The notes under the pieces were generated by a model. That model had not been told where the DNA came from, did no database searches, and saw nothing but the letters and a program-made list of their open reading frames with translations. A stretch of 64,000 nt of DNA, taken from positions 10,104-74,103 of the forward strand of contig JBFXBG010000001.1 in the NCBI GenBank assembly GCA_050183505.1, written 5' to 3'. Both the position numbers and the translations under genes were made by a program. Below are positions 1,706 to 55,405 of this stretch, piece by piece (the first letter of the stretch is position 1; each line of letters opens with the position of its first letter). The DNA comes from Gemmatimonadales bacterium. Its GTDB lineage: Bacteria; Gemmatimonadota; Gemmatimonadetes; Gemmatimonadales; GWC2-71-9.

Positions 1706-2557
1706 ATGACACTCCTGCGAGCTACGACCGCCGCCGCGGCTTTCGCCCTGTTGGCCGCCGCCTGCAGCGACAGCGCGACCAGCCCCGACACGACCGGGCT
1801 CACGGCCGCCCAGGCCGAACAGATCGCCGATGTCGTCACGACCGACGCGGACGCGATGGTCTCGGCGTCCTCTCAGAGCCCGGCGTCCGGCTTCATGCTG
1901 GCCCCGTCGGCTACCACGCCGGTCCTCGCGAGCCCGCCGTGCTTCCCCTCGGTGAGCCCGGCCAACCCCGCCAACGTCGACGGCGATGCCGTACCCGACT
2001 CGGTCCGCCTGGACTTCAACGCCTGCGCCTCCGCGTCCGGCTTCATTGACATCCTGGATCCGACCCTGGTGACGCCGGACTGGGGGATCCGTTCGGTCTT
2101 CACCGATTTCACGATCACCCGCTCACGCGGGCCCCGGAGCCGCATGGCCAGCGCCGTGTTCAACGGCGCCCGGCAGGTGACCGGCAACAACGATCAGATC
2201 AATCACCTGATCACCAACTTCGAGACCGATCTCACCTTCCCGAATGAGACCACCATCAAGCACGTGAAGGACTGGAATGCGACGTTCCTCGCCGATGTCG
2301 CCGGGTCGATCCAGCACGCCCAGCCGCTGCCCAGCGGCACCTTGAACCTGGCCGGTTCGTCCACCTGGACGAAGGGGACCGTGAGCTGGTCCATGACCAT
2401 TACGACCAGCGGGCTGCATTTCGACGCGTCCTGCACGGTGGAGCCCAGATTCGATGCGGGGACTACGACCATCGTGGTCGACCGCAGCGGGAGCACGCAC
2501 ACCGTGACGATCGAACATACGGCCTGTGGGCAGTTCACCGTGACCCGGACGAACTGA
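1706..2557 (+). CDS. Hypothetical lipoprotein, beta-rich
   Basis: GGAGGAG RBS, signal peptide with lipobox LLAAA-C, Thr/Ser/Gly-rich mature part, downstream terminator. Confidence 0.8.
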   Translation: MTLLRATTAAAAFALLAAACSDSATSPDTTGLTAAQAEQIADVVTTDADAMVSASSQSPASGFMLAPSATTPVLASPPCFPSVSPANPANVDGDAVPDSVRLDFNACASASGFIDILDPTLVTPDWGIRSVFTDFTITRSRGPRSRMASAVFNGARQVTGNNDQINHLITNFETDLTFPNETTIKHVKDWNATFLADVAGSIQHAQPLPSGTLNLAGSSTWTKGTVSWSMTITTSGLHFDASCTVEPRFDAGTTTIVVDRSGSTHTVTIEHTACGQFTVTRTN

Positions 2558-2570
2558 CCCGCGGATCCCG

Positions 2571-2615
2571 GAAAGACTGGCCGGCCGTCTGGAGACAGGC
2601 GGCCGGTCTTTTTTC
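2571..2615 (+). terminator. Rho-independent terminator
   Basis: AAAGACTGGCCG...CGGCCGGTCTTT stem followed by a T-run. Confidence 0.75.
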
Positions 2616-2644
2616 GGGGCGCGGGAATGGAGGACGGGCTTCCC

Positions 2645-4309
2645 CTACGGTACCTGAATCGGCAGCTCGGCGGCGAACAGCATGGTGCGGTCCATGTCGG
2701 CGGCTGCCCAGCGAAGCAGCACGGCGGGATTCCGGCGGACCAGGCCGTCCCAGGACACCTGGCCGTTGGTGATGACCCGGATCGGCTGGGAGAAATCGAA
2801 AAGGTCGGGGGAGAGCAGCAGGGTGAACCGGCGGACGTAGCTCGAGTGGACCTCCACGGTGTTGCCATGGCGTTCCAGGACGACCCGGCCGCTCGGCCCC
2901 GGGTGCGGAAATGCCTGGACCGGCCGGATCCGGCTCGGGTCGGGCCGGGGACCGAGGTGAATCACGGTCCGGCCCTGCTGCCCTTGGCGTTCCACCAGCA
3001 CGTCGATGGAGTCGCCCCAGTCCAGCCCGCGCGTCGCGTTGACCAGGGACCGGACGGTCGGTGTAGGCGCACCGTTCGCTTCCAGGATCAGGTCGCCGGC
3101 CCGCAGGCCGCTTCTCGCCGCGATCGAGCCGAGTTCCACCACCTGAAGCCGGACGCCACGGGTGCTCGACGGATCGGTGCGGACGCCCAGCGTTGGGGCC
3201 GGCGGCAGCGGCATGATGCTGTCGAACGTGGGCAGGATTGTATCGCTGGCCGACGGTCCCAGTTCGTCGATGACCAGCCAGAAGGCGCGGTTGTCCCGGT
3301 CGGTCCGGTCGGCCTCCCAGGAGATCCGGTCCGGCAGCGGATTGCGGACGTGGTGCGCCAGAAACGAGTCGATCGCCGGTTCCTCGGCAGGCCACCAGCG
3401 CAGGTCGTGCCCGGTTTCGGGGCGGGGATGGAACGTGACGTCGACACCGGCCGAACGGAACAGCGCGATGTAGGGCGCCACCTCGTCGGCCGGGTAGAGC
3501 GGATCGAGGGCCCCGTTCACCACGAAGAGCGGCACATTGCGGAGATTGACCACGTAGAATGGACCGTCGGCGTTCAGGGCCGGATTGGCCAGCGGGCCGG
3601 GATGGCCCAGCAGCGGCAACACCCCGGCGAACAGCATCGGAACCTTGAACGCGAGAAAGAACGCGCCGGTCCCTCCGTCGGACACCCCGAAGGCGTAGAT
3701 GCGGTTCTCGTCGACGTTGTAGGTCTGTCGCAGCGTCCGGAGGATGCCGGTGATATTCTCCAGCTGGTTGGCCTGCCACCACATCGCACCGCGCCACGCC
3801 GAAGGAAAGATCGAGATCTCATCGGGCGGGGCGAACCGGTCGAAGTCCCAGTGTTGTCCCGAGTCGAGCTCCTCGGTGTTCACGCCGCCGTGCAGGTAGA
3901 TCCGCACCGGCATGGGTATCCCGGGGTCGTAGCTGGCGGGGACGACCAGCACGTACTGATGAACGAACCCGTCGGACGTCTGGTGGGTCAGGAGGAGCCG
4001 GCCCTTGGGAACGCGCGAGGGGTACGTGCGACCCTCGCGAAGGCGGGCCGCGATCGTATCGGGATCGGCGCCCGTGAGCAGAATGCCCGACACGGCGCCC
4101 TGACGGTCGCGCGGGTCGGACGCGTTCCAGAATGAGCGGAAGGCGTGGTCCAGGGCCTGGTTCTGATGACGCTGCCGCGCGAGCGCCTCGCGTGGCACCA
4201 TACAAGGCACCAGCAGCAGGGCGCACAGCATGCCGCGCCAGGCGCGCGTGACCGGAATGTCGCGATCCCTCATCTCCATGAATATGTCGCTGGGGGGAAG
4301 CCGGTCCAA
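2645..4309 (-). CDS. Exported alpha/beta-hydrolase (esterase/peptidase-like) with an inserted PDZ domain; start uncertain (4232-4309)
   Basis: YLHGG oxyanion motif, GVSDGG nucleophile elbow, GALDP and GH triad segments. PDZ signature LGVR...GSIAARSGLRAGDLILEANG. Confidence 0.75.
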   Translation of the reverse strand: MDRLPPSDIFMEMRDRDIPVTRAWRGMLCALLLVPCMVPREALARQRHQNQALDHAFRSFWNASDPRDRQGAVSGILLTGADPDTIAARLREGRTYPSRVPKGRLLLTHQTSDGFVHQYVLVVPASYDPGIPMPVRIYLHGGVNTEELDSGQHWDFDRFAPPDEISIFPSAWRGAMWWQANQLENITGILRTLRQTYNVDENRIYAFGVSDGGTGAFFLAFKVPMLFAGVLPLLGHPGPLANPALNADGPFYVVNLRNVPLFVVNGALDPLYPADEVAPYIALFRSAGVDVTFHPRPETGHDLRWWPAEEPAIDSFLAHHVRNPLPDRISWEADRTDRDNRAFWLVIDELGPSASDTILPTFDSIMPLPPAPTLGVRTDPSSTRGVRLQVVELGSIAARSGLRAGDLILEANGAPTPTVRSLVNATRGLDWGDSIDVLVERQGQQGRTVIHLGPRPDPSRIRPVQAFPHPGPSGRVVLERHGNTVEVHSSYVRRFTLLLSPDLFDFSQPIRVITNGQVSWDGLVRRNPAVLLRWAAADMDRTMLFAAELPIQVP

Positions 4310-45224: not shown

Positions 45225-46571
45225 ATGGCCGATACCGTACTTCTGATTGACGATGATGTCGAAGTCCTCCGCTCGATCGGGAACTATTTCGAGCACGTAG
45301 GTTACGAGGTCGCCCGGGAGCTGACAGGGGAGGCCGGTCTGGCGACCTACGAACGCCTCCGTCCGGAAGTCGTCATCCTCGACCTGCACCTCCCGGGCAT
45401 GGACGGCATGGAGGTGCTGGAGCGCCTGCGGGAGCAGGGCGCCGCCGTCATCCTGCTGACCGGGCAGAGCGACATCCCCACCGCAGTCCGAGCCATGCAG
45501 CTCGGGGCGGACAACTTCCTGACCAAGCCGGTCGACATGGCCCACCTGGTCGCGGCCGCGGCGCGGGCGGCGGAGAAGTCCCGGCTCAAGCGGGTGAATG
45601 AGATGCTGCTGGCGCACATGTCGCCGGGGCAGGGGTTGGAGTCGCTGGGACATTCCCCGGCGATGCAGGAGCTGGCCCGCCAGATCGGGCTCCTCGCCCA
45701 GAGCGAGCGGACCACCGTCCTCCTGGTCGGCGAAAGCGGCACCGGCAAGGGCTGGGTAGCCCGGATGATCCATAACCTGAGCCCCCGCTCCCGGGCGCCG
45801 TTCGTGGAAGTGAACGCCGGCGGCCTCTCCTCGACCTTCCTGGATTCCGAGCTGTTCGGTCATGAGAAGGGGGCGTTCACCGACGCCAAGGATCGCAAGC
45901 AGGGGCTGTTCGAGATCGCCGATCATGGGACCATCTTTCTCGACGAGATCGGCGATCTGGCCGTGGAGCTTCAGCCCAAGCTGCTCAAGGTGCTCGAGGC
46001 CAAGAGCTTCCGCCGGCTGGGCGGAACCCGGGAACTGACCGTGGATGTGCGGCTCATCGCGGCGACCAACAAGGACATCGCGGCGGCGGTGGAGGGCGCC
46101 CGGTTCCGCGAGGATCTGTACTACCGCCTCAGCGTCATGCCGCTTCACCTGCCCGCCGTCCGGGACCGCTCCCGGGAGGACCGGCTGGACCTCATCACCC
46201 GGATCCTGCACGATTTCCGGAACCAGGTGCCGGGAGGGCCGCCCAGCGTCTCGGCCGATGCGCTGGAGCGGATGCTGGCCTACGGCTGGCCCGGCAACGT
46301 GCGGGAGATGCGCAATGTGATCGAGCGGGCGCTGATCCTGGCCCAGGGAAAGAGCGAAATCGGGGTGGAGCACCTGCCCGGGGAATTCCGCGCGCGCGCC
46401 GGGCCGGGAGACCGGCGGCACATGCCGCTCAGCCTGGACGATCTGGAGCGCCAGCACATCGAGCGCACCCTCCGGCACCATTCCGGCAACCGGACCCGGG
46501 CCGCGCTCGAACTCGGTATCTCCCGGGCCACCCTGATCAACAAGATCAAACGCTACTCGATTCCGGTGTGA
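45225..46571 (+). CDS. NtrC-family sigma54-dependent response regulator
   Basis: REC domain (IDDD, LDLHLP), GESGTGK, ELFGHEKGAFTDA, FLDEIG, WPGNVRE and Fis HTH. Confidence 0.95.
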   Translation: MADTVLLIDDDVEVLRSIGNYFEHVGYEVARELTGEAGLATYERLRPEVVILDLHLPGMDGMEVLERLREQGAAVILLTGQSDIPTAVRAMQLGADNFLTKPVDMAHLVAAAARAAEKSRLKRVNEMLLAHMSPGQGLESLGHSPAMQELARQIGLLAQSERTTVLLVGESGTGKGWVARMIHNLSPRSRAPFVEVNAGGLSSTFLDSELFGHEKGAFTDAKDRKQGLFEIADHGTIFLDEIGDLAVELQPKLLKVLEAKSFRRLGGTRELTVDVRLIAATNKDIAAAVEGARFREDLYYRLSVMPLHLPAVRDRSREDRLDLITRILHDFRNQVPGGPPSVSADALERMLAYGWPGNVREMRNVIERALILAQGKSEIGVEHLPGEFRARAGPGDRRHMPLSLDDLERQHIERTLRHHSGNRTRAALELGISRATLINKIKRYSIPV

Positions 46572-49578: not shown

Positions 49579-49642
49579 CCCCACCTCCCTTCCAAATCCG
49601 ATGGTCCGCCTCTAGTTTGAGCGGAACTTCAGCAAGACTTGT

Positions 49643-49657
49643 TGAGAATGATTCTCA
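49643..49657. promoter_or_regulatory. Fur-box-like 7-1-7 palindrome
   Basis: TGAGAAT-G-ATTCTCA overlapping the ATG of an iron permease gene. Confidence 0.75.
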
Positions 49658-51777
49658 GTATTGCCGGTCCCACGCTCCTCCTCGCCGCGTCCCTCGCGGC
49701 TGCCCAGCAGCCGGCCCAGTCGGGTACACCCGATTACGCACCCACGGTTCAGCGGCTGGCCGCAACGGTCCGGCTGGCGGCCCAGGAGTATCGGCTGGGG
49801 GTGAGCGACGGCAAGGTCATCGCCCAGCCCGAAGTCGAAGAGGCCAGGCTGTTTCTCACCGAGGCACGGCGAACGGCCGGCCTGCTCCCGCCTTCGATTA
49901 CCCGCTACGCATTTCCTCAGATCGATTCGGTGCTGGCGATTGTCGCGGCGACCGGGGACCCGGACTCGGTCGCCGCGCGTGCATCCGTCCTGGCCGATCG
50001 CGTCGCCCGGGACCTGGGGATCACACTGGATGTCGTCCCCGCCAATGCCCCGAGCCTCGCCCGCGGTGCCGAGGTGTTCCAGACCAGCTGCGCCAGCTGT
50101 CACGGCACGCTCGGCCGGGGCGACGGTCCGGCCGCGGCCGGCATTCAGCCGCCGCCGGCCAATCTGGCCGATGCGGGCGCGCTGATCGACGCCTCGCCGC
50201 TTTCGTTCTATGAGAAGATCACCATCGGCGTCGCCGGCACGGCCATGCCGGCGTTCGAGACCCGGCTGTCCCGGGAAGACCGGTGGGCCGCGGCGGTTTA
50301 CGCCACACTGTTCCGGTTGCCGCCCCCGCAGGGTGAGGTCCCGCCGGCCCTGAGCGCTTTTCCCACCTCCGCCCGGATGTCCGACCGGGAACTGGCCGAT
50401 GCGGTGGCGCCGCTGCAGGATCCGGCCGGCCCGCGGGCGCTTGCCGCGGTGGCCGCGGTGCGGAACTACCAGCTGCAGCAGGCCGGCGGCGGGGACGCTT
50501 CGGTGGTGTTCGACCAGGTCCGCCGGCAGCTCGACTCGGCGCTCCGGCTTGCCCGGGCCGGGCACGGTGATGCCGCCAGCACGGTGGCGTTCGATGCCTA
50601 CATGGTATTCGAGCAGGTGGAACCCACCGTCCGGGCCAAGGAGAACGCGCTCGCCGGCGAACTCGAGACGTCCTTCGCGGCGTTCCGTTCCCGGGCCGCC
50701 GGCGGCGCGACCGATCAGGAACTCAGCACGATCCACAACCGCCTGCTGGCCGATCTGGAGAAGGCCGAGCGCACCATGGGAGACCAGCTCTCGGCGGGCA
50801 ACCTGGTGCTGAACTCGTTCGTGATTCTGGTCCGGGAGGGACTCGAGGCGATCCTCATCCTCGGCGCCCTGGTCGCCATGCTGGCGAAGATGGGAGCAAC
50901 CCAGCGGAAACGGGACGTGCACATCGGGGCCGGGGCCGCGGTGGCGGCGAGCCTGCTCACCGCCGTGGTGCTGGAGACCCTCATTACGATCACTCCCGCC
51001 AGCCGGGAGGCCCTCGAGGGTGTCACCATGCTGGTCGCGGTAGTCATGCTGTTCTACGTGAGCTACTGGCTGCTCAGCAAGATGGAAGTGGCCAAGTGGA
51101 ACCGGTTCGTGAAGGGCAAGGTGGAAGACGCGCTCACGAGCGGCTCCGCGCTGGCGCTGGCGTCGGTGGCGTTTCTGGCGGTCTACCGGGAAGGCTTTGA
51201 AACGGTCCTGTTCTACAAGGCACTGGCCGTGGCCGGCGGGAGCGGTGGGGCGATGCCGGTGGTGGCCGGCATCCTGGCCGGGAGCGTGGTGCTGGTGGCG
51301 GTGTACTACGCCATCAACCGCTTCGGGGTGAAGATCCCGCTCCGGCCCTTCTTCGCCTTTACCAGCGCGTTCCTGTACTACATGGCGTTCGTCTTCGCCG
51401 GGAAGGGCATCGCGGAGCTGCAGGAAGGCGGGCTCGTCTCCACGACCCTGGTTCCGTGGGGGCCGCGGGTACCCCAGGTGGGGATTTACCCCACCGTGGA
51501 GACGATGGCGGCCCAGGGCGTATTGCTGGCGCTGTTCGCCTTTGCCCTGGTCTGGACGTTCATCGTCCTCCCGCGGCGGCTCAAGGTGACCCGGAGCCTG
51601 GTTCCGGAAGGGGCGCCGGCTCAGCCGGCCGCGCCCGGTGCGGTCGCCCTCTCTCCTGACGTCAATCGGGATTTCGTCCGCTCCCTGGAACGGATGGACG
51701 CGGACCTGGCGGAACTCCGGGCCGAGGTCGAGCGGCTGCGGCAGAAGCTGGGAGGAGAGGTAAGCCGGAAGCAGTGA
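49648..51777 (+). CDS. Cytochrome c - FTR1 iron permease fusion (PbrT-like)
   Basis: Signal peptide, CASCH heme motif, GTAMP, two REGxE motifs (REGLE, REGFE) and about 7 TM. Confidence 0.92.
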   Translation: MILSIAGPTLLLAASLAAAQQPAQSGTPDYAPTVQRLAATVRLAAQEYRLGVSDGKVIAQPEVEEARLFLTEARRTAGLLPPSITRYAFPQIDSVLAIVAATGDPDSVAARASVLADRVARDLGITLDVVPANAPSLARGAEVFQTSCASCHGTLGRGDGPAAAGIQPPPANLADAGALIDASPLSFYEKITIGVAGTAMPAFETRLSREDRWAAAVYATLFRLPPPQGEVPPALSAFPTSARMSDRELADAVAPLQDPAGPRALAAVAAVRNYQLQQAGGGDASVVFDQVRRQLDSALRLARAGHGDAASTVAFDAYMVFEQVEPTVRAKENALAGELETSFAAFRSRAAGGATDQELSTIHNRLLADLEKAERTMGDQLSAGNLVLNSFVILVREGLEAILILGALVAMLAKMGATQRKRDVHIGAGAAVAASLLTAVVLETLITITPASREALEGVTMLVAVVMLFYVSYWLLSKMEVAKWNRFVKGKVEDALTSGSALALASVAFLAVYREGFETVLFYKALAVAGGSGGAMPVVAGILAGSVVLVAVYYAINRFGVKIPLRPFFAFTSAFLYYMAFVFAGKGIAELQEGGLVSTTLVPWGPRVPQVGIYPTVETMAAQGVLLALFAFALVWTFIVLPRRLKVTRSLVPEGAPAQPAAPGAVALSPDVNRDFVRSLERMDADLAELRAEVERLRQKLGGEVSRKQ

Positions 51778-51787
51778 CCAGGGGGCC

Positions 51788-51913
51788 GGAAAGCCGAACG
51801 GCCCACGGTTACCCGTGAGCCGCCGGAAGGAAGCCAGTGACAAGTCGCCCCCTGAGTCTATTGGAGACGGGCCTAAGTGCCCGCTCCACTCTTCTTCGAC
51901 CTGCCACTGTTGC
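51788..51913 (-). ncRNA. Candidate sigma54-dependent small RNA
   Basis: Downstream of a consensus -24/-12 promoter. It has a 13-bp basal stem, a nested hairpin and a terminal GUAA-capped hairpin; three G-U pairs exist only on the minus strand. Confidence 0.6.
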
Positions 51914-51924
51914 CTTCTTCTAAG

Positions 51925-51940
51925 GCAAGGCAGGTGCCAA
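51925..51940 (-). promoter_or_regulatory. Sigma54 (-24/-12) promoter
   Basis: Minus strand TTGGCAC-CTGCC-TTGC, an exact TGGCAC-N5-TTGC consensus, in intergenic DNA. Confidence 0.75.
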
Positions 51941-52072
51941 CCATCCGCTTATCAGAAGTCCTTCCCGCACAACGACTTCGAAGATCTCGTCCGGGGGCGG
52001 ATCACCGCTCCCGGTGTCAAGCTCCTTGCCAGTATTCGGGCCGTTCTACGTAACCACCATCAAACCAATGGC

Positions 52073-52936
52073 TTATCTCGCTGTCGACGTTTGTGACGCT
52101 ACGGCCGGTTCGACGGAGCTCAAATAGGGACCGGGATCGACCTGGGGGCGTGAACGAAGGCTATGCCAGACCACGATACCCACGATGACGAGCAGGACGC
52201 TCATGGCCTGCGCCAGGGTGAAAGGGCCCAGCAGCCGGTCGTCCTTGGCCCGGACGATTTCCACCAGGAAGCGCTCGAGACCGGCGAGCATGAGGTAGAC
52301 GCCGAAGAGCGCCCCGGTTCCCCAGGGCTTCTTGCGGAGCTTCCAGAGCACGGCGAAGGCGATGAACATGGCGGTCGCCTCGTAGAGCTGGGTCGGGTGG
52401 ACGGCCAGGACGGTATTCGGATCGGTCCCGGGCGGGACCGGGATGCCGAAGAGACTCTGCATGTTCTGGGCGGTCGAAGCCGGCAGGCCCTGGGGGAACC
52501 GGACCCCCCAGGGCACCGACGTGGGGCGGCCGTAATCGTCGTTCACCAGGAAACAGCCGATCCGGCCCAGGGCGTAGGCGGCGGCGAGCGCCGGAGCCAC
52601 CAGGTGGGCGGTCCACCGGGTCGGGACCCGGAGCCGCCACCCGTTCAGCGCGACCGCCACGGCGCCACCCACCAGCCCGCCGTACCAGACCAGCCCGCCT
52701 CGCGAGAACAGCGCGTTCAGATCCCGGGTGAGCCCGACGTACCAGAGCTTGGCGCCGATGATGCCGCCGATCACGGCGGCCACGGTGATCTCGGCGGCGT
52801 AGTCTTCGCGCAGATTCCGCCGACGAAGCTCGAGGGAGATGAGCCAGCCGCCGGTGAGGAAGCCGACCATCATCATGATTCCGTAGCCGGTGATCTCGAG
52901 CGGGCCGAGCTTGATGATGAATGGATAGAAGTCCAT
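52073..52936 (-). CDS. lgt: Prolipoprotein diacylglyceryl transferase
   Basis: YGIM, GGLVWYGG, GRIGCFL..DDYG, HPTQLYE and RFLVE motifs. Confidence 0.93.
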   Translation of the reverse strand: MDFYPFIIKLGPLEITGYGIMMMVGFLTGGWLISLELRRRNLREDYAAEITVAAVIGGIIGAKLWYVGLTRDLNALFSRGGLVWYGGLVGGAVAVALNGWRLRVPTRWTAHLVAPALAAAYALGRIGCFLVNDDYGRPTSVPWGVRFPQGLPASTAQNMQSLFGIPVPPGTDPNTVLAVHPTQLYEATAMFIAFAVLWKLRKKPWGTGALFGVYLMLAGLERFLVEIVRAKDDRLLGPFTLAQAMSVLLVIVGIVVWHSLRSRPQVDPGPYLSSVEPAVASQTSTAR

Positions 52937-52968
52937 GGGAGGAGTCGAGGGGTCGAGGAGTCGCGGCT

Positions 52969-54042
52969 TCAGCGCCGGGTGCCGGCCCGGTCCACGGTCT
53001 GCGGCAGGTGCAGTCCCGGGAACGGCAGATCCGCCCGGGGTTCGAGGTCCCAGCCGCTGCGCTCGCCCCGGGCCAGACGCCAGGCACCGGCGGCACCGAT
53101 CATGGCAGCGTTGTCGGTGTTGAGCCTGGGGGTGGCCACGACCACTCGGGCCCGGCCCTGCAGCCGCTCGGTGAGCGCGGCCGCCAGGGCCCGGTTGCAG
53201 GCAACCCCTCCGCCGATCATGGCCGTGCGGTAGCCCAGGTCGGCGACGGCGTGGGCGGTCTTCTCGACCAGCACCTCGATGACCGCGTCCTGAAAGCCGC
53301 GGGCCAGATCGGGGCGGTCGTTCTCCAGGTCGGCGCTGCCCCGCGCCGCGTGGAGCAGCGCGGTCTTGAGCCCGCTGAAGGAGAACTCGAAGCGCGCGGG
53401 GCCGGGGCGCTCCACCTCCCGCAGCATGGGCCGGGGAAAGCGGAACCGGTCGGGGGCTCCGCGCACCGCGAGTTTCTCGATCAGCGGTCCACCGGGATAG
53501 CCCAGGCCCAGGATCGTGGCCACCTTGTCGAAGGCTTCACCGGCGGCATCGTCCCGGGTCTGGCCCAGCATGCGGTAGGTGCCCCAGGCCGGCACATCAA
53601 GCAGCATGGTGTGGCCGCCGCTTACCAGCAGTCCGATGAAGGGCGGTTCGAACCCGGGGTCCTCGAGCGTCGGGGCGAAGAGGTGTCCTTCCAGGTGGTG
53701 CACGCCGAGCAGTGGCAGGCGTCGGGAAAAGGCGAGTGTCTTGCCGTACATGACCCCGACCAGCAACGCGCCCACCAGGCCTGGGCCGGCAGTGACGACG
53801 ACGCCGTCCAGCCGGTCGGCGGTGAGCCGCGCTCCGGTCAGGGCGCGGTCGGTGACGGAGGCGATGGTGCGAAGATGGGCGCGACTGGCCAGCTCGGGCA
53901 CGACCCCGCCGAAGACCGCGTGAACGTCCTGCGACAGGATGACCAGGCTCTCGAGGGCGGCGCGGCCGCCCTCCCCGGAGGTGAGGACGGCCGCGGAGGT
54001 TTCGTCACAGGACGTTTCCAGAGCCAGAATCCGGCGGGTCAC
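52969..54042 (-). CDS. tsaD: tRNA t6A threonylcarbamoyltransferase
   Basis: LALETSCDETS, GGVVPELASRAH, HHLEGH, VSGGHT, DDAAGEAFDK and TDNAAMI motifs. Confidence 0.96.
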   Translation of the reverse strand: MTRRILALETSCDETSAAVLTSGEGGRAALESLVILSQDVHAVFGGVVPELASRAHLRTIASVTDRALTGARLTADRLDGVVVTAGPGLVGALLVGVMYGKTLAFSRRLPLLGVHHLEGHLFAPTLEDPGFEPPFIGLLVSGGHTMLLDVPAWGTYRMLGQTRDDAAGEAFDKVATILGLGYPGGPLIEKLAVRGAPDRFRFPRPMLREVERPGPARFEFSFSGLKTALLHAARGSADLENDRPDLARGFQDAVIEVLVEKTAHAVADLGYRTAMIGGGVACNRALAAALTERLQGRARVVVATPRLNTDNAAMIGAAGAWRLARGERSGWDLEPRADLPFPGLHLPQTVDRAGTRR

Positions 54043-54053
54043 CGTCGCAATCC

Positions 54054-54668
54054 TCAGCTCTTCAGCTCGGTCTGTACGGCGCTGTCCCGGCCCGGTACCG
54101 AGGCGGGGGCCGGTGCCGGCGCGGGCGGGGCGCCGGGACCCTCGGACAGGAGCCGCTCGATCAGGGCCCGATTGACGGGCGAGTCCCAGTCGTGGGCGCC
54201 GATTACCCATTTCACGATGATGCCGTCCCGGTTCACCAGATAGCTCTCGGGCACGCCGGTCGTCTGGAACAGTTTCTCGATCCGGCGGGTCCGGTCCTGC
54301 AGCAGATCGAAGGTGATGCCCATCTCGTTGGCGAAATCGGTCACCACGCCCCGGCCGTCCTGATCCACACTGACCGCGGCGATCCGGAAGCCCTGGTCCC
54401 GGTAGGACTCGTAGGCCTTCTGCATCGAGGGCATCTCGACCCGGCAGGGCCCGCACCAGGTGGCCCAGATATTCACCAGCGTGACCGAACCCTGATACTC
54501 TTTCCGGAGCGAGAGCGAGTCTCCGCTCCGGGCGTCTTCCAGCTTGAAATCGGGCATCCGGGCGCCGACCTCGACCCGCTCGATCCCTGAGCCGAGCCGG
54601 ACCAGGGCCGCGGATCCGACCGCGAGCCCGCCGACGATTGCCGCTACCGCGAACCACTGTTTGGACAT
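54054..54668 (-). CDS. TlpA/ResA-like thiol-disulfide oxidoreductase
   Basis: N-terminal anchor, NIWATWCGPCRVEMP and GVPES motifs. Confidence 0.92.
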   Translation of the reverse strand: MSKQWFAVAAIVGGLAVGSAALVRLGSGIERVEVGARMPDFKLEDARSGDSLSLRKEYQGSVTLVNIWATWCGPCRVEMPSMQKAYESYRDQGFRIAAVSVDQDGRGVVTDFANEMGITFDLLQDRTRRIEKLFQTTGVPESYLVNRDGIIVKWVIGAHDWDSPVNRALIERLLSEGPGAPPAPAPAPASVPGRDSAVQTELKS

Positions 54669-54672
54669 ATGA

Positions 54673-54737
54673 AGTCGAGGAGTCGAGAAGTCGAGAGTCG
54701 AGAAGTCGAGAGTCGAGAGTCGAGGAGTCGAGGAGTC
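54673..54737. repeat. (GTCGAG[A/G]N)n 7-8-mer repeat
   Basis: Fills the rpe-tlpA gap. The same family occurs at 27264, 47603, 52940 and 59153. Confidence 0.85.
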
Positions 54738-55405
54738 TAGACCCTGATGGTGCATTCCGTGAGCAGGGCCCGAACGGCGTCGGCCGGGTCAGCCGAGCCG
54801 AAGACGGCAGAACCCGCCACGAAGGTGTCCGCCCCGGCCCGCCAGGCCTCGGCGATGGTGTCCACGCCGATGCCGCCATCCACCTCCAGCACCGCCGGAG
54901 ACCGGTGGCGGTCGAGCATGGCCCGGGCCCGGGTGAGCTTGGCGGTGCTGGCTGGAATATAGGCCTGTCCGCTGAAGCCCGGGTTCACCGACATGATGAG
55001 GAGCAGGTCGAGGTCATCCACGACTTCCTCCGCCATGGCCACCGGCGTGGAAGGATTGAGCGCCAGCCCGGCCCGCATCCCGTGTTCCCGCACCGAGTTC
55101 AGGTGCCGCTGCACGTGGACGGTCGCCTCGGCGTGGAGCGTGAAGACCGTGGCGCCGGCATCGGCGTACTCCTCGATATAGCGCTCCGGAGCGCGGACCA
55201 TGAGGTGGACGTCCAGGGGGATGTCAAACAGCTTGCGCAGCGCCCGGATGACGGGTGCTCCGAAGGTGAGGTTGGGGACGAAGTTGCCGTCCATGACGTC
55301 CACGTGGATCCACTCGGCGCCTCCGTCCAGTGCGGCTTCCACCGCTTCTTTCAGCCGGCCCAGATCGGCACTGAGAACGCTGGGAGCAATGCGCGCTGCG
55401 GTCAT
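54737..55405 (-). CDS. rpe: Ribulose-phosphate 3-epimerase
   Basis: IAPSVLSAD, HVDVMDG, DVHLM, MSVNPGFSGQ and EVDGG motifs. Confidence 0.96.
   Translation of the reverse strand: MTAARIAPSVLSADLGRLKEAVEAALDGGAEWIHVDVMDGNFVPNLTFGAPVIRALRKLFDIPLDVHLMVRAPERYIEEYADAGATVFTLHAEATVHVQRHLNSVREHGMRAGLALNPSTPVAMAEEVVDDLDLLLIMSVNPGFSGQAYIPASTAKLTRARAMLDRHRSPAVLEVDGGIGVDTIAEAWRAGADTFVAGSAVFGSADPADAVRALLTECTIRV

Follow-up and report, generated by a model that had tools for sequence, protein, structure and literature searches.

The 64,000-nt stretch of DNA analysed here (the window) comes from the genome of a Gemmatimonadales bacterium, and the interval 51788-51940 of its minus strand quite probably contains the gene for a small RNA (sRNA) with a sigma-54-type promoter. 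All coordinates are window positions, and the RNA gene and its parts are read on the minus strand. The interval sits inside a 295-nt spacer that separates lgt from a convergent gene encoding an FTR1 iron permease fused to a cytochrome c domain, whose stop codon is located 11 nt past the end of the RNA gene (Table 1). The predicted gene has the anatomy of a stand-alone sRNA, with its own promoter, a terminator hairpin (bearing a weak U tail in the source genome) and no same-strand gene downstream. Its existence, structure, promoter type and distribution rest on comparative sequence evidence; we infer transcription, sigma-54 dependence and function. It represents a new RNA family of a known kind, namely an sRNA under an alternative sigma factor.

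On the minus strand the promoter reads TGGCAC (51939-51934), then 5 nt, then TTGC (51928-51925). The ViennaRNA minimum free energy (MFE) fold of this strand has an energy of -69.6 kcal/mol (z = -4.21), and 0/200 shuffles are equally stable, compared with z = -1.58 and 18/200 equally stable shuffles for the plus strand; the asymmetry between these z values indicates that the preference for the minus strand is real. The original prediction, made from the letters of the window, had proposed this strand together with a particular set of promoter, stems, loops and hairpins. All of these elements are present at the minus-strand positions collected in Table 1, ViennaRNA reproduces the proposed fold exactly, and the fold asymmetry agrees with the proposed direction. 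The next downstream gene was likewise correctly described as convergent, since it is the FTR1-cytochrome c gene on the plus strand, and the 3' end of the RNA gene does adjoin the iron permease stop codon.

Table 1. Positions of the RNA gene, its predicted parts and its neighbours in the window
Feature	Position	Strand	Remarks
lgt (prolipoprotein diacylglyceryl transferase)	52073..52936	-	Upstream neighbour, same strand; Pfam LGT 3.7e-54
FTR1 iron permease fused to cytochrome c domain	49639..51777	+	Convergent downstream neighbour; Pfam FTR1 7.6e-39, Cytochrome_CBB3 1e-11
Sigma-54-type promoter TTGGCAC-N5-TTGC	51925..51940	-	-24 GG, -12 GC; sole exact match in the window
Predicted transcription start	51913	-	12 nt after the -12 C; from the usual sigma-54 geometry
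Conserved structured core	51835..51909	-	MFE fold, covariance-model matches and model-free alignment
P1, 13-bp basal stem	51909-51897 with 51847-51835	-	Fold
Internal-loop strands	AAGAA 51896-51892 opposite AGGGGG 51853-51848	-	Fold
P2, 4-bp GAGU/ACUC helix	51891-51888 with 51857-51854	-	Fold
P3 apical hairpin, 9 bp and one bulged U	51887-51879 with 51872-51863; apical loop 51878-51873	-	Fold
Pyrimidine-rich linker GCUUCCUUCC, unpaired, anti-Shine-Dalgarno-like	51825..51834	-	Sequence and fold
3' GC-rich hairpin with GUAA loop (51826-51794) and short U tail (51793-51788)	51788..51826	-	Fold; presumed intrinsic terminator
Distal dyad GGC-N9-GAC, candidate activator site	52016..52030	-	Begins 91 nt upstream of the -24 element; one mismatch to GTC-N9-GAC
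Proximal inverted repeat AAGTCGTT ... AAGGACTT	51956..51978	-	Between distal dyad and promoter; candidate IHF-like or second-regulator site

When the spacer was compared by BLAST with 40 relatives, significant matches were confined to the core and came from four other genera, and in 4/4 of these genera a -24/-12-like element lies upstream and a terminator downstream. A first covariance model, built from five sequences, found the RNA in 35 of the 151 genomes sampled from the same family, representing 19 of 78 genera, nearly always as one copy (the BLAST and first-model tallies count genome G014 as a no-match). Across 31 model matches 99.3% of cells are paired and 12 of the 24 pairs are changed on both sides, which 0/500 shuffles reach; when the partner strand is slid, pairing falls to 30-51%. 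With 80 distinct matches from public contigs, 99.2% of cells are paired and compensatory changes are found in 13 of 24 pairs, and the slid controls across both alignments are 27-51% paired. Model-free alignment of 40 diverse copies by MAFFT and RNAalifold returned the identical 24 pairs, 13 of them compensatory. The AAGAA and AGGGGG loop strands are identical in 31/31 model-found copies, and the core ranges from 69 to 73 nt. By these comparisons the element is a conserved structured RNA; both the promoter and the stems of the original prediction are conserved in relatives, and 12 to 13 of the pairs covary.

A contig of a related strain (from a run that is probably DNA, at about 92% identity) gives a picture at closer range. 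Over positions 51797-51913 it contains one substitution, located in the variable junction, and one inserted base, located in the terminator, and the -24/-12 element (51925-51939) is without changes. The flanks show 19 differences in 51942-52069 and seven in 51753-51789.

A cmscan of positions 50500-53500 against Rfam 15, with E values up to 10, gave three weak matches elsewhere and none at the locus, and the same search at ten relatives' loci (E up to 1) gave none at the RNA. Our literature searches found no description of this RNA, nor of any regulatory RNA in Gemmatimonadota, and the main text of the papers on non-coding RNA discovery that were consulted names neither Gemmatimonadetes, sigma-54 nor lgt. 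A resemblance of the loop motifs to helix 16 of E. coli 16S rRNA was discarded as a sign of mimicry, as the family's own 16S rRNA lacks the motifs there. We also rejected, by inspection only, a small open reading frame (ORF): the core is 69-73 nt long, the junction varies, and the substitutions are paired and not codon-like.

The RNA is narrowly distributed. A second covariance model was positive in 24 of 61 and in 27 of 71 genomes sampled from the same family (tallies in which the unpublished genome G204 counts as one match), in 0/62 and 0/27 genomes of two sister families, and in 1/79 genomes of other families of the phylum, the single match (25 bits, E = 0.005) being at chance level. When a degenerate pattern of both loop strands was scanned over one genome per species (185,579 species), at least 120 stretches were returned. 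Among the 120 listed, 109 were confirmed by the model at 56 bits or more, all of them metagenome-assembled genomes (MAGs) labelled within Gemmatimonadota; 111 of those listed are titled Gemmatimonadota, Gemmatimonadetes, Gemmatimonadales or Gemmatimonadaceae, and all 111 are MAGs. The other 11, nine from other phyla together with L084 and L092, reach at most 17.3 bits with the model and are chance matches. On the genomes covered, the RNA family is restricted to one family of Gemmatimonadales. The source genome has a single match, and relatives have one locus each except for tandem pairs and one dispersed copy in genome G213; a repeat or mobile element of the REP or MITE type was rejected because there is one copy per genome, not many in varied contexts.

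Its genomic place is equally constant. Among 101 loci, in which genome and public-contig entries were not de-duplicated, tsaD, lgt and the RNA gene lie on the same strand and are followed by the convergent FTR1-cytochrome c gene in 78; the remainder comprise 13 loci with lgt and tsaD only, six with FTR1 only (on short contigs), three with lgt and FTR1, and one with neither. Overall, lgt is upstream on the same strand in 94/101 and FTR1 is convergent downstream in 87/101. Four near-complete relatives that gave no match have lgt and the convergent downstream gene almost stop to stop, the latter being FTR1 in three of the four and a different ORF in G013. Since the two genes abut with almost no spacer between them, the RNA gene is absent from these relatives and has not merely diverged.

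The promoter could be followed through 106 distinct copies, 80 of which possess [T/C]GGCA[C/T]-N5-NTGC within 75 nt upstream. The same pattern was found in 0/106 on the reverse complement of that stretch and in 0/106 at 325-400 nt upstream, which supports the sigma-54-type promoter proposed originally. The other 26 copies consist of 13 with a sigma-70-type promoter, nine promoterless second cores, three of other kinds and one at a contig end. In 77 promoters the -12 C lies mostly 28-35 nt before the start of the model, leaving room for a variable 5' hairpin; the source genome alone among the 77 has a distance of 7 and no 5' hairpin, and its RNA is predicted to begin about 4 nt before the basal stem. 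The source genome encodes rpoN (DNA-binding domain 6.9e-64, contig C127) and has 17 Sigma54_activat matches, corresponding to about 15 activator genes. By its sequence, its position and the presence of rpoN the promoter is of the sigma-54 type, and transcription from it would be expected to depend on sigma-54.

The 13 copies with the other promoter type belong to one subclade, characterised by a GUCC...GGAC basal stem, and carry TTGACA-N16-18-TAnnnT instead of the sigma-54 element. These sigma-70-type promoters often have CTAGG-N6-CCTAG dyads across the -10 region (e.g. L211 1501-1516 and L206 1501-1516), and such a dyad is probably the operator of a regulator. Genome G141 (L205, L209, L214, L216 and L217) contains near-identical CTAGGG-T/A4-CCCTAG dyads at six sites, some directly before TTGACAGGG; Pfam searches of the ORFs that flank the CTAGG dyads in this genome gave only DUF5117 and DUF5343, which are uninformative.

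Upstream of the sigma-54-type promoters, GTC-N9-GAC occurs exactly in 35 of 77 regions compared with 2.8 in shuffles, and, if at most one mismatch is allowed, 38 of 77 regions, that of the source genome among them, have it positioned at -94 to -89. Other clades have TGTACA-N5-TGCAC or GCCGGAAC-N8-GTTCCGGC in the same place. This distal dyad is a candidate activator site (upstream activating sequence, UAS), as judged from its enrichment and position. A position-wise consensus of the 77 promoters also shows, about 20 nt ahead of the -24 element, a box resembling ACGACTTA, represented in the window by the inverted repeat at 51978-51956; no more than 20 of the 77 contain a strict IHF-like core, CAA-N4-TTR. 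In one clade (L053, L038, L076, L106, L125 and L096) a palindrome of about 33 nt, centred on the distal dyad and followed by a T run, lies roughly 90-125 nt upstream of -24; it could double as a terminator for lgt and a protein-binding site. Elsewhere in the source genome the pattern TGGCA[C/T]-N5-[T/G/C]TGC[A/T/C] matches 45 sites, eight of them with the strict form TGGCAC-N5-TTGC, and the distal dyad accompanies none of the other sigma-54-like sites among these 45. They could seed a map of the organism's sigma-54 regulon.

It had also been suggested that the RNA is driven by the NtrC-type gene located 5 kb away (45225-46571), which encodes receiver, sigma-54-interaction and HTH_8 domains. 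This gene is one of the roughly 15 activators, and its role as activator of the RNA is not supported by the comparison of genomes. An orthologue is found on the contig of the lgt locus in 17 of 19 genomes (4-9 kb away in 16, and about 14 kb in G005), and these include two genomes in which the RNA has a sigma-70 promoter and one that lacks the RNA gene; in G020, a further genome that has no RNA gene, the orthologue is likewise retained, about 9 kb from lgt. Since the position is kept in genomes with a sigma-70 promoter or with no RNA gene, the closeness of the NtrC-type gene reflects conserved gene order. Its C-terminal recognition helix is identical in 19/19, even though at least three classes of upstream dyad are found across clades. 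The original prediction of an undescribed structured sigma-54 sRNA is thus upheld by comparison as regards structure, promoter and novelty, with no match to an Rfam family, and not as regards the neighbouring NtrC-type gene as its driver.

At the 3' side, a GC hairpin of 12-18 bp, mostly with a U-rich tail, lies downstream of every listed copy whose downstream sequence was available, and 6-10 mostly pyrimidine nucleotides separate it from the basal stem. Nine copies are second cores, located about 110 nt downstream of a first core. Because neither a promoter nor a terminator separates the two, a single transcript would carry both. Examples of double cores are found at L051 (1501-1700), L123, L099, L088, L104, L068, L093 and L090, in each case with a sigma-54 promoter before the first core and a terminator after the second, and they belong mainly to the clade with GCCGGAAC/GTTCCGGC upstream dyads. 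More divergent representatives are also found. A dispersed third copy in G213 (L197, about 2490-2700, minus strand, contig C146) lies away from lgt and FTR1, with a sigma-70-like promoter (TTGCAT-N17-TAGTTT) and its own terminator; its apical hairpin has been remodelled by paired changes and its loop strands are unchanged. Genus g55 has a variant (L199 and L200, 301-383, minus strand, 40 bits) in which AAGAA and the 4-bp helix are missing and the sigma-54 promoter, the 5' hairpin, the basal stem, CAGGGGGCG and the terminator are all retained; this suggests that the G-rich strand is under the strongest constraint.

These arrangements bear on whether the element might instead be a structured 3' untranslated region (UTR) or terminator module of the tsaD-lgt transcript, with a role in stability or processing, next to an incidental promoter motif. 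That it immediately follows lgt, in the same orientation, in 94 of the 101 loci would suit such a module, as would the finding that the scan of the window calls no terminator in the stretch from lgt to the element. We nevertheless consider it very improbable, as 93 of 106 copies have a promoter of one of two types, conserved at a fixed distance, the dispersed copy of G213 has its own promoter and terminator away from lgt, and there are relatives in which lgt abuts the convergent gene and the element is missing. In addition, the dyad hairpin and T run that precede the promoter in one clade could themselves terminate lgt.

A riboswitch or cis-regulatory leader was rejected because the terminator is followed by a convergent gene in 87 of 101 loci and no same-strand gene follows. 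A related proposal is that of a ligand-sensing conditional terminator, read-through of which would generate antisense RNA or interference against the FTR1-cytochrome c gene. An invariant internal loop held by covarying helices does resemble an aptamer, the FTR1-cytochrome c gene is convergent in the same 87 loci, and a palindrome resembling a Fur box at the FTR1 start (described below) suggests a regulated gene. Such a device is very unlikely given the great strength of the GC stems (12-18 bp), for which no anti-terminator pairing was seen, the several loci with full 1.5-kb flanks that have no FTR1 gene downstream, the different context of the dispersed copy and the lack of a same-strand gene after the element.

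Some of the ORFs around the locus require comment. The palindrome TGAGAAT-G-ATTCTCA (49643-49657, plus strand) coincides with the TTG codon listed as the start of the FTR1-cytochrome c ORF and looks similar to the 7-1-7 consensus of Fur-type boxes; this gene, which may be under iron regulation, probably starts further downstream. Opposite the FTR1 gene is a shadow ORF of 743 aa (49612-51843, minus strand) that gives no match in Pfam. The tsaD ORF (52969-54879, minus strand, 636 aa) has its TsaD domain confined to residues 313-595 and overlaps the rpe ORF, and its start is probably over-called. Both the shadow ORF and the long tsaD ORF are ordinary artefacts of a genome with 68% G+C.

Several points weigh against an independent sRNA gene with the features set out above, or against the mode of action proposed for it below. 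Within the window the promoter motif, allowing at most one mismatch, is seen three times compared with 3.36 expected, which is not above chance, and only the match at the RNA gene is exact. A simple terminator scan does not call the 3' hairpin of the source genome, since its tail, CUUUCC, has only three U. With promoter motif and terminator unremarkable in the window alone, the significance of the RNA gene rests on the comparative data, which have their own biases: alignments A2, A3 and A5 were fitted to a covariance model, loci L061-L180 were chosen by a pattern that contains the loop motifs, so that loop invariance there arises by construction, and the genomes are related, so that counts overstate independence. 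The pyrimidine-rich tail, moreover, fits a base-pairing model, and simple target searches gave nothing either way. Finally, the source-genome copy is atypical in lacking a 5' hairpin, in a tail that is not CUCUC and in its mismatched distal dyad, and could therefore be decaying.

This last point raises the question of whether the family is real and the copy in the source genome merely a non-functional relic. It is the sole one of 77 without a 5' hairpin, and the weak U tail, atypical linker and mismatched distal dyad are what might be expected of decay. Against this, the core keeps every invariant position, the -24/-12 element still matches the consensus exactly, the upstream boxes are intact, and the contig of the related strain has far fewer changes inside the gene than beside it. 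We regard a relic as most improbable.

The best account of the locus is an independent sRNA gene of about 120 nt at 51788-51940, the source-genome copy of which would be transcribed by sigma-54 RNA polymerase from an enhancer-type -24/-12 promoter with conserved dyads upstream. Its transcript would end at the GC hairpin, just short of the stop codon that closes the convergent FTR1-cytochrome c gene. The RNA is predicted to fold as a rod-like hairpin of three helices that holds the AAGAA and AGGGGG purine strands face to face, with an A-rich strand 5' of the rod hairpin and a pyrimidine-rich strand 3' of it. We suggest that the core may serve as a recognition module, binding or sequestering some conserved partner, and that the RNA may act in trans, independently of Hfq, as a decoy or platform; this is a tentative preference, held at somewhat less than even confidence. 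It is suggested by the location of the invariant nucleotides inside a scaffold and not in a free seed, by the presence of two cores per transcript in some lineages and by the divergent genus that keeps only the CAGGGGG strand. A protein would be the most likely partner, ahead of a small molecule or the ribosome.

An Hfq-dependent sRNA was rejected, as Hfq (PF17209) was found neither in the source genome (93.8% complete) nor in any of 61 family genomes that are at least 95% complete, by a search whose control was positive in 5 of 14 named genomes. CsrA and Ro (TROVE domain) were not found in the source genome either. The whole RNA forms no better duplexes (RNAduplex) with the starts of the FTR1-cytochrome c, lgt, tsaD, ACPS and NtrC-type genes than with shuffled targets. 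The complement of an 11-mer from the AGGGGG strand occurs at five other sites of the genome, compared with about 13 estimated by chance; these lie beside unrelated genes that appear by eye, in place of a family search, to be MlaD-like, sulfatase-like and HDOD.

The same gene could alternatively be read as encoding an sRNA whose tail (GCUUCCUUCC in the source genome; in most relatives, CUCUC or CUCCC) base-pairs to the Shine-Dalgarno regions of target mRNAs and blocks translation, in the manner of C-rich-seed sRNAs that are independent of Hfq, the core serving only to stabilise the molecule. Most sRNAs with a promoter and terminator of their own act by base pairing. Pairing by the tail would be in keeping with its unpaired state in the fold, with the make-up of the 6 nt that follow P1, at least five of which are pyrimidines in 89 of 105 copies, with CUCUC or CUCCC at the start of 43 of 105 tails, and with the failure to find Hfq in the family, which presumably fits seed types that work without Hfq. 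The tail is kept in composition and not in sequence, however, as its 5-mers come in more than 15 versions, some of which lack a CU motif, and it measures just 6-10 nt; the invariant nucleotides are found in the internal loop instead, double-core transcripts are untypical of seed sRNAs, and duplexes with the starts of neighbouring genes are no better than shuffles. Pairing by the tail is therefore a possibility that we view with some doubt, and a recognition module formed by the core is the reading that we continue to prefer.

Comparison with known systems places the RNA among sRNAs of several types. The GlmY/GlmZ sRNAs of the Enterobacteriaceae have sigma-54 promoters served by a UAS and IHF, and homologous copies are under sigma-54 in some species and sigma-70 in others (PMC3045617); GlmY acts as a protein decoy for RapZ (PMC7073468). 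The RNA family reported here shows a similar split, with 80 sigma-54-type and 13 sigma-70-type copies, and the decoy mode of GlmY is the kind of mechanism that we favour for it. It differs from GlmY/GlmZ in having no homology detectable by Rfam, in belonging to another phylum and in forming a single rod-like hairpin as opposed to three stem-loops. The Qrr RNAs of Vibrio likewise have sigma-54 promoters (acting via the NtrC-type LuxO), are short with a terminator and are present in multiple copies in some genomes. Qrr RNAs need Hfq and act via a conserved free seed. In contrast, Hfq was found in 0/61 genomes of the family, the invariant bases here lie inside an internal loop, and there is no Rfam match.

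In Pseudomonas, CrcZ and CrcY are RNAs that require sigma-54 and CbrB and whose repeated A-rich motifs sequester a protein. With its invariant AAGAAG strand and its tandem cores, the Gemmatimonadales RNA loosely resembles them in function. CrcZ differs in that it is about 400 nt long, contains several unstructured motifs and titrates Hfq/Crc, and neither Hfq nor any homology was found here. In sRNAs of the RsaE/RoxS type a pyrimidine-rich single strand pairs with the Shine-Dalgarno sequence in hosts that do not rely on Hfq. The RNA described here shares such a strand, but the C-rich motifs of the RsaE/RoxS type are conserved, whereas here the tail varies and the internal loop is invariant, and no Rfam match was obtained.

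Gemmatimonadota are abundant bacteria of soil and wastewater. The RNA constitutes a well-supported new family, ready for Rfam, and a clean natural case in which the control of a single RNA gene has switched between sigma-54 and sigma-70; its promoter and dyads provide an anchor for defining sigma-54 regulons in the phylum. It points to riboregulation in a lineage where Hfq, CsrA and Ro were not found, and the invariant purine-purine internal loop is a concrete target in the search for an RNA-binding partner or ligand. The neighbourhood of lgt and an iron permease may hint at themes for its function. More speculatively, and we hold this to be doubtful, the family might found, in a phylum from which no sRNA is known, a new class of sigma-54-controlled, Hfq-independent riboregulators in which the purine loop, above all CAGGGGG, would dock a protein or metabolite, duplication of the module would raise its capacity, and the input would have been rewired in one subclade to sigma-70 and an operator; its place between lgt and a possibly Fur-controlled permease may tie such a regulator to envelope or iron homeostasis.

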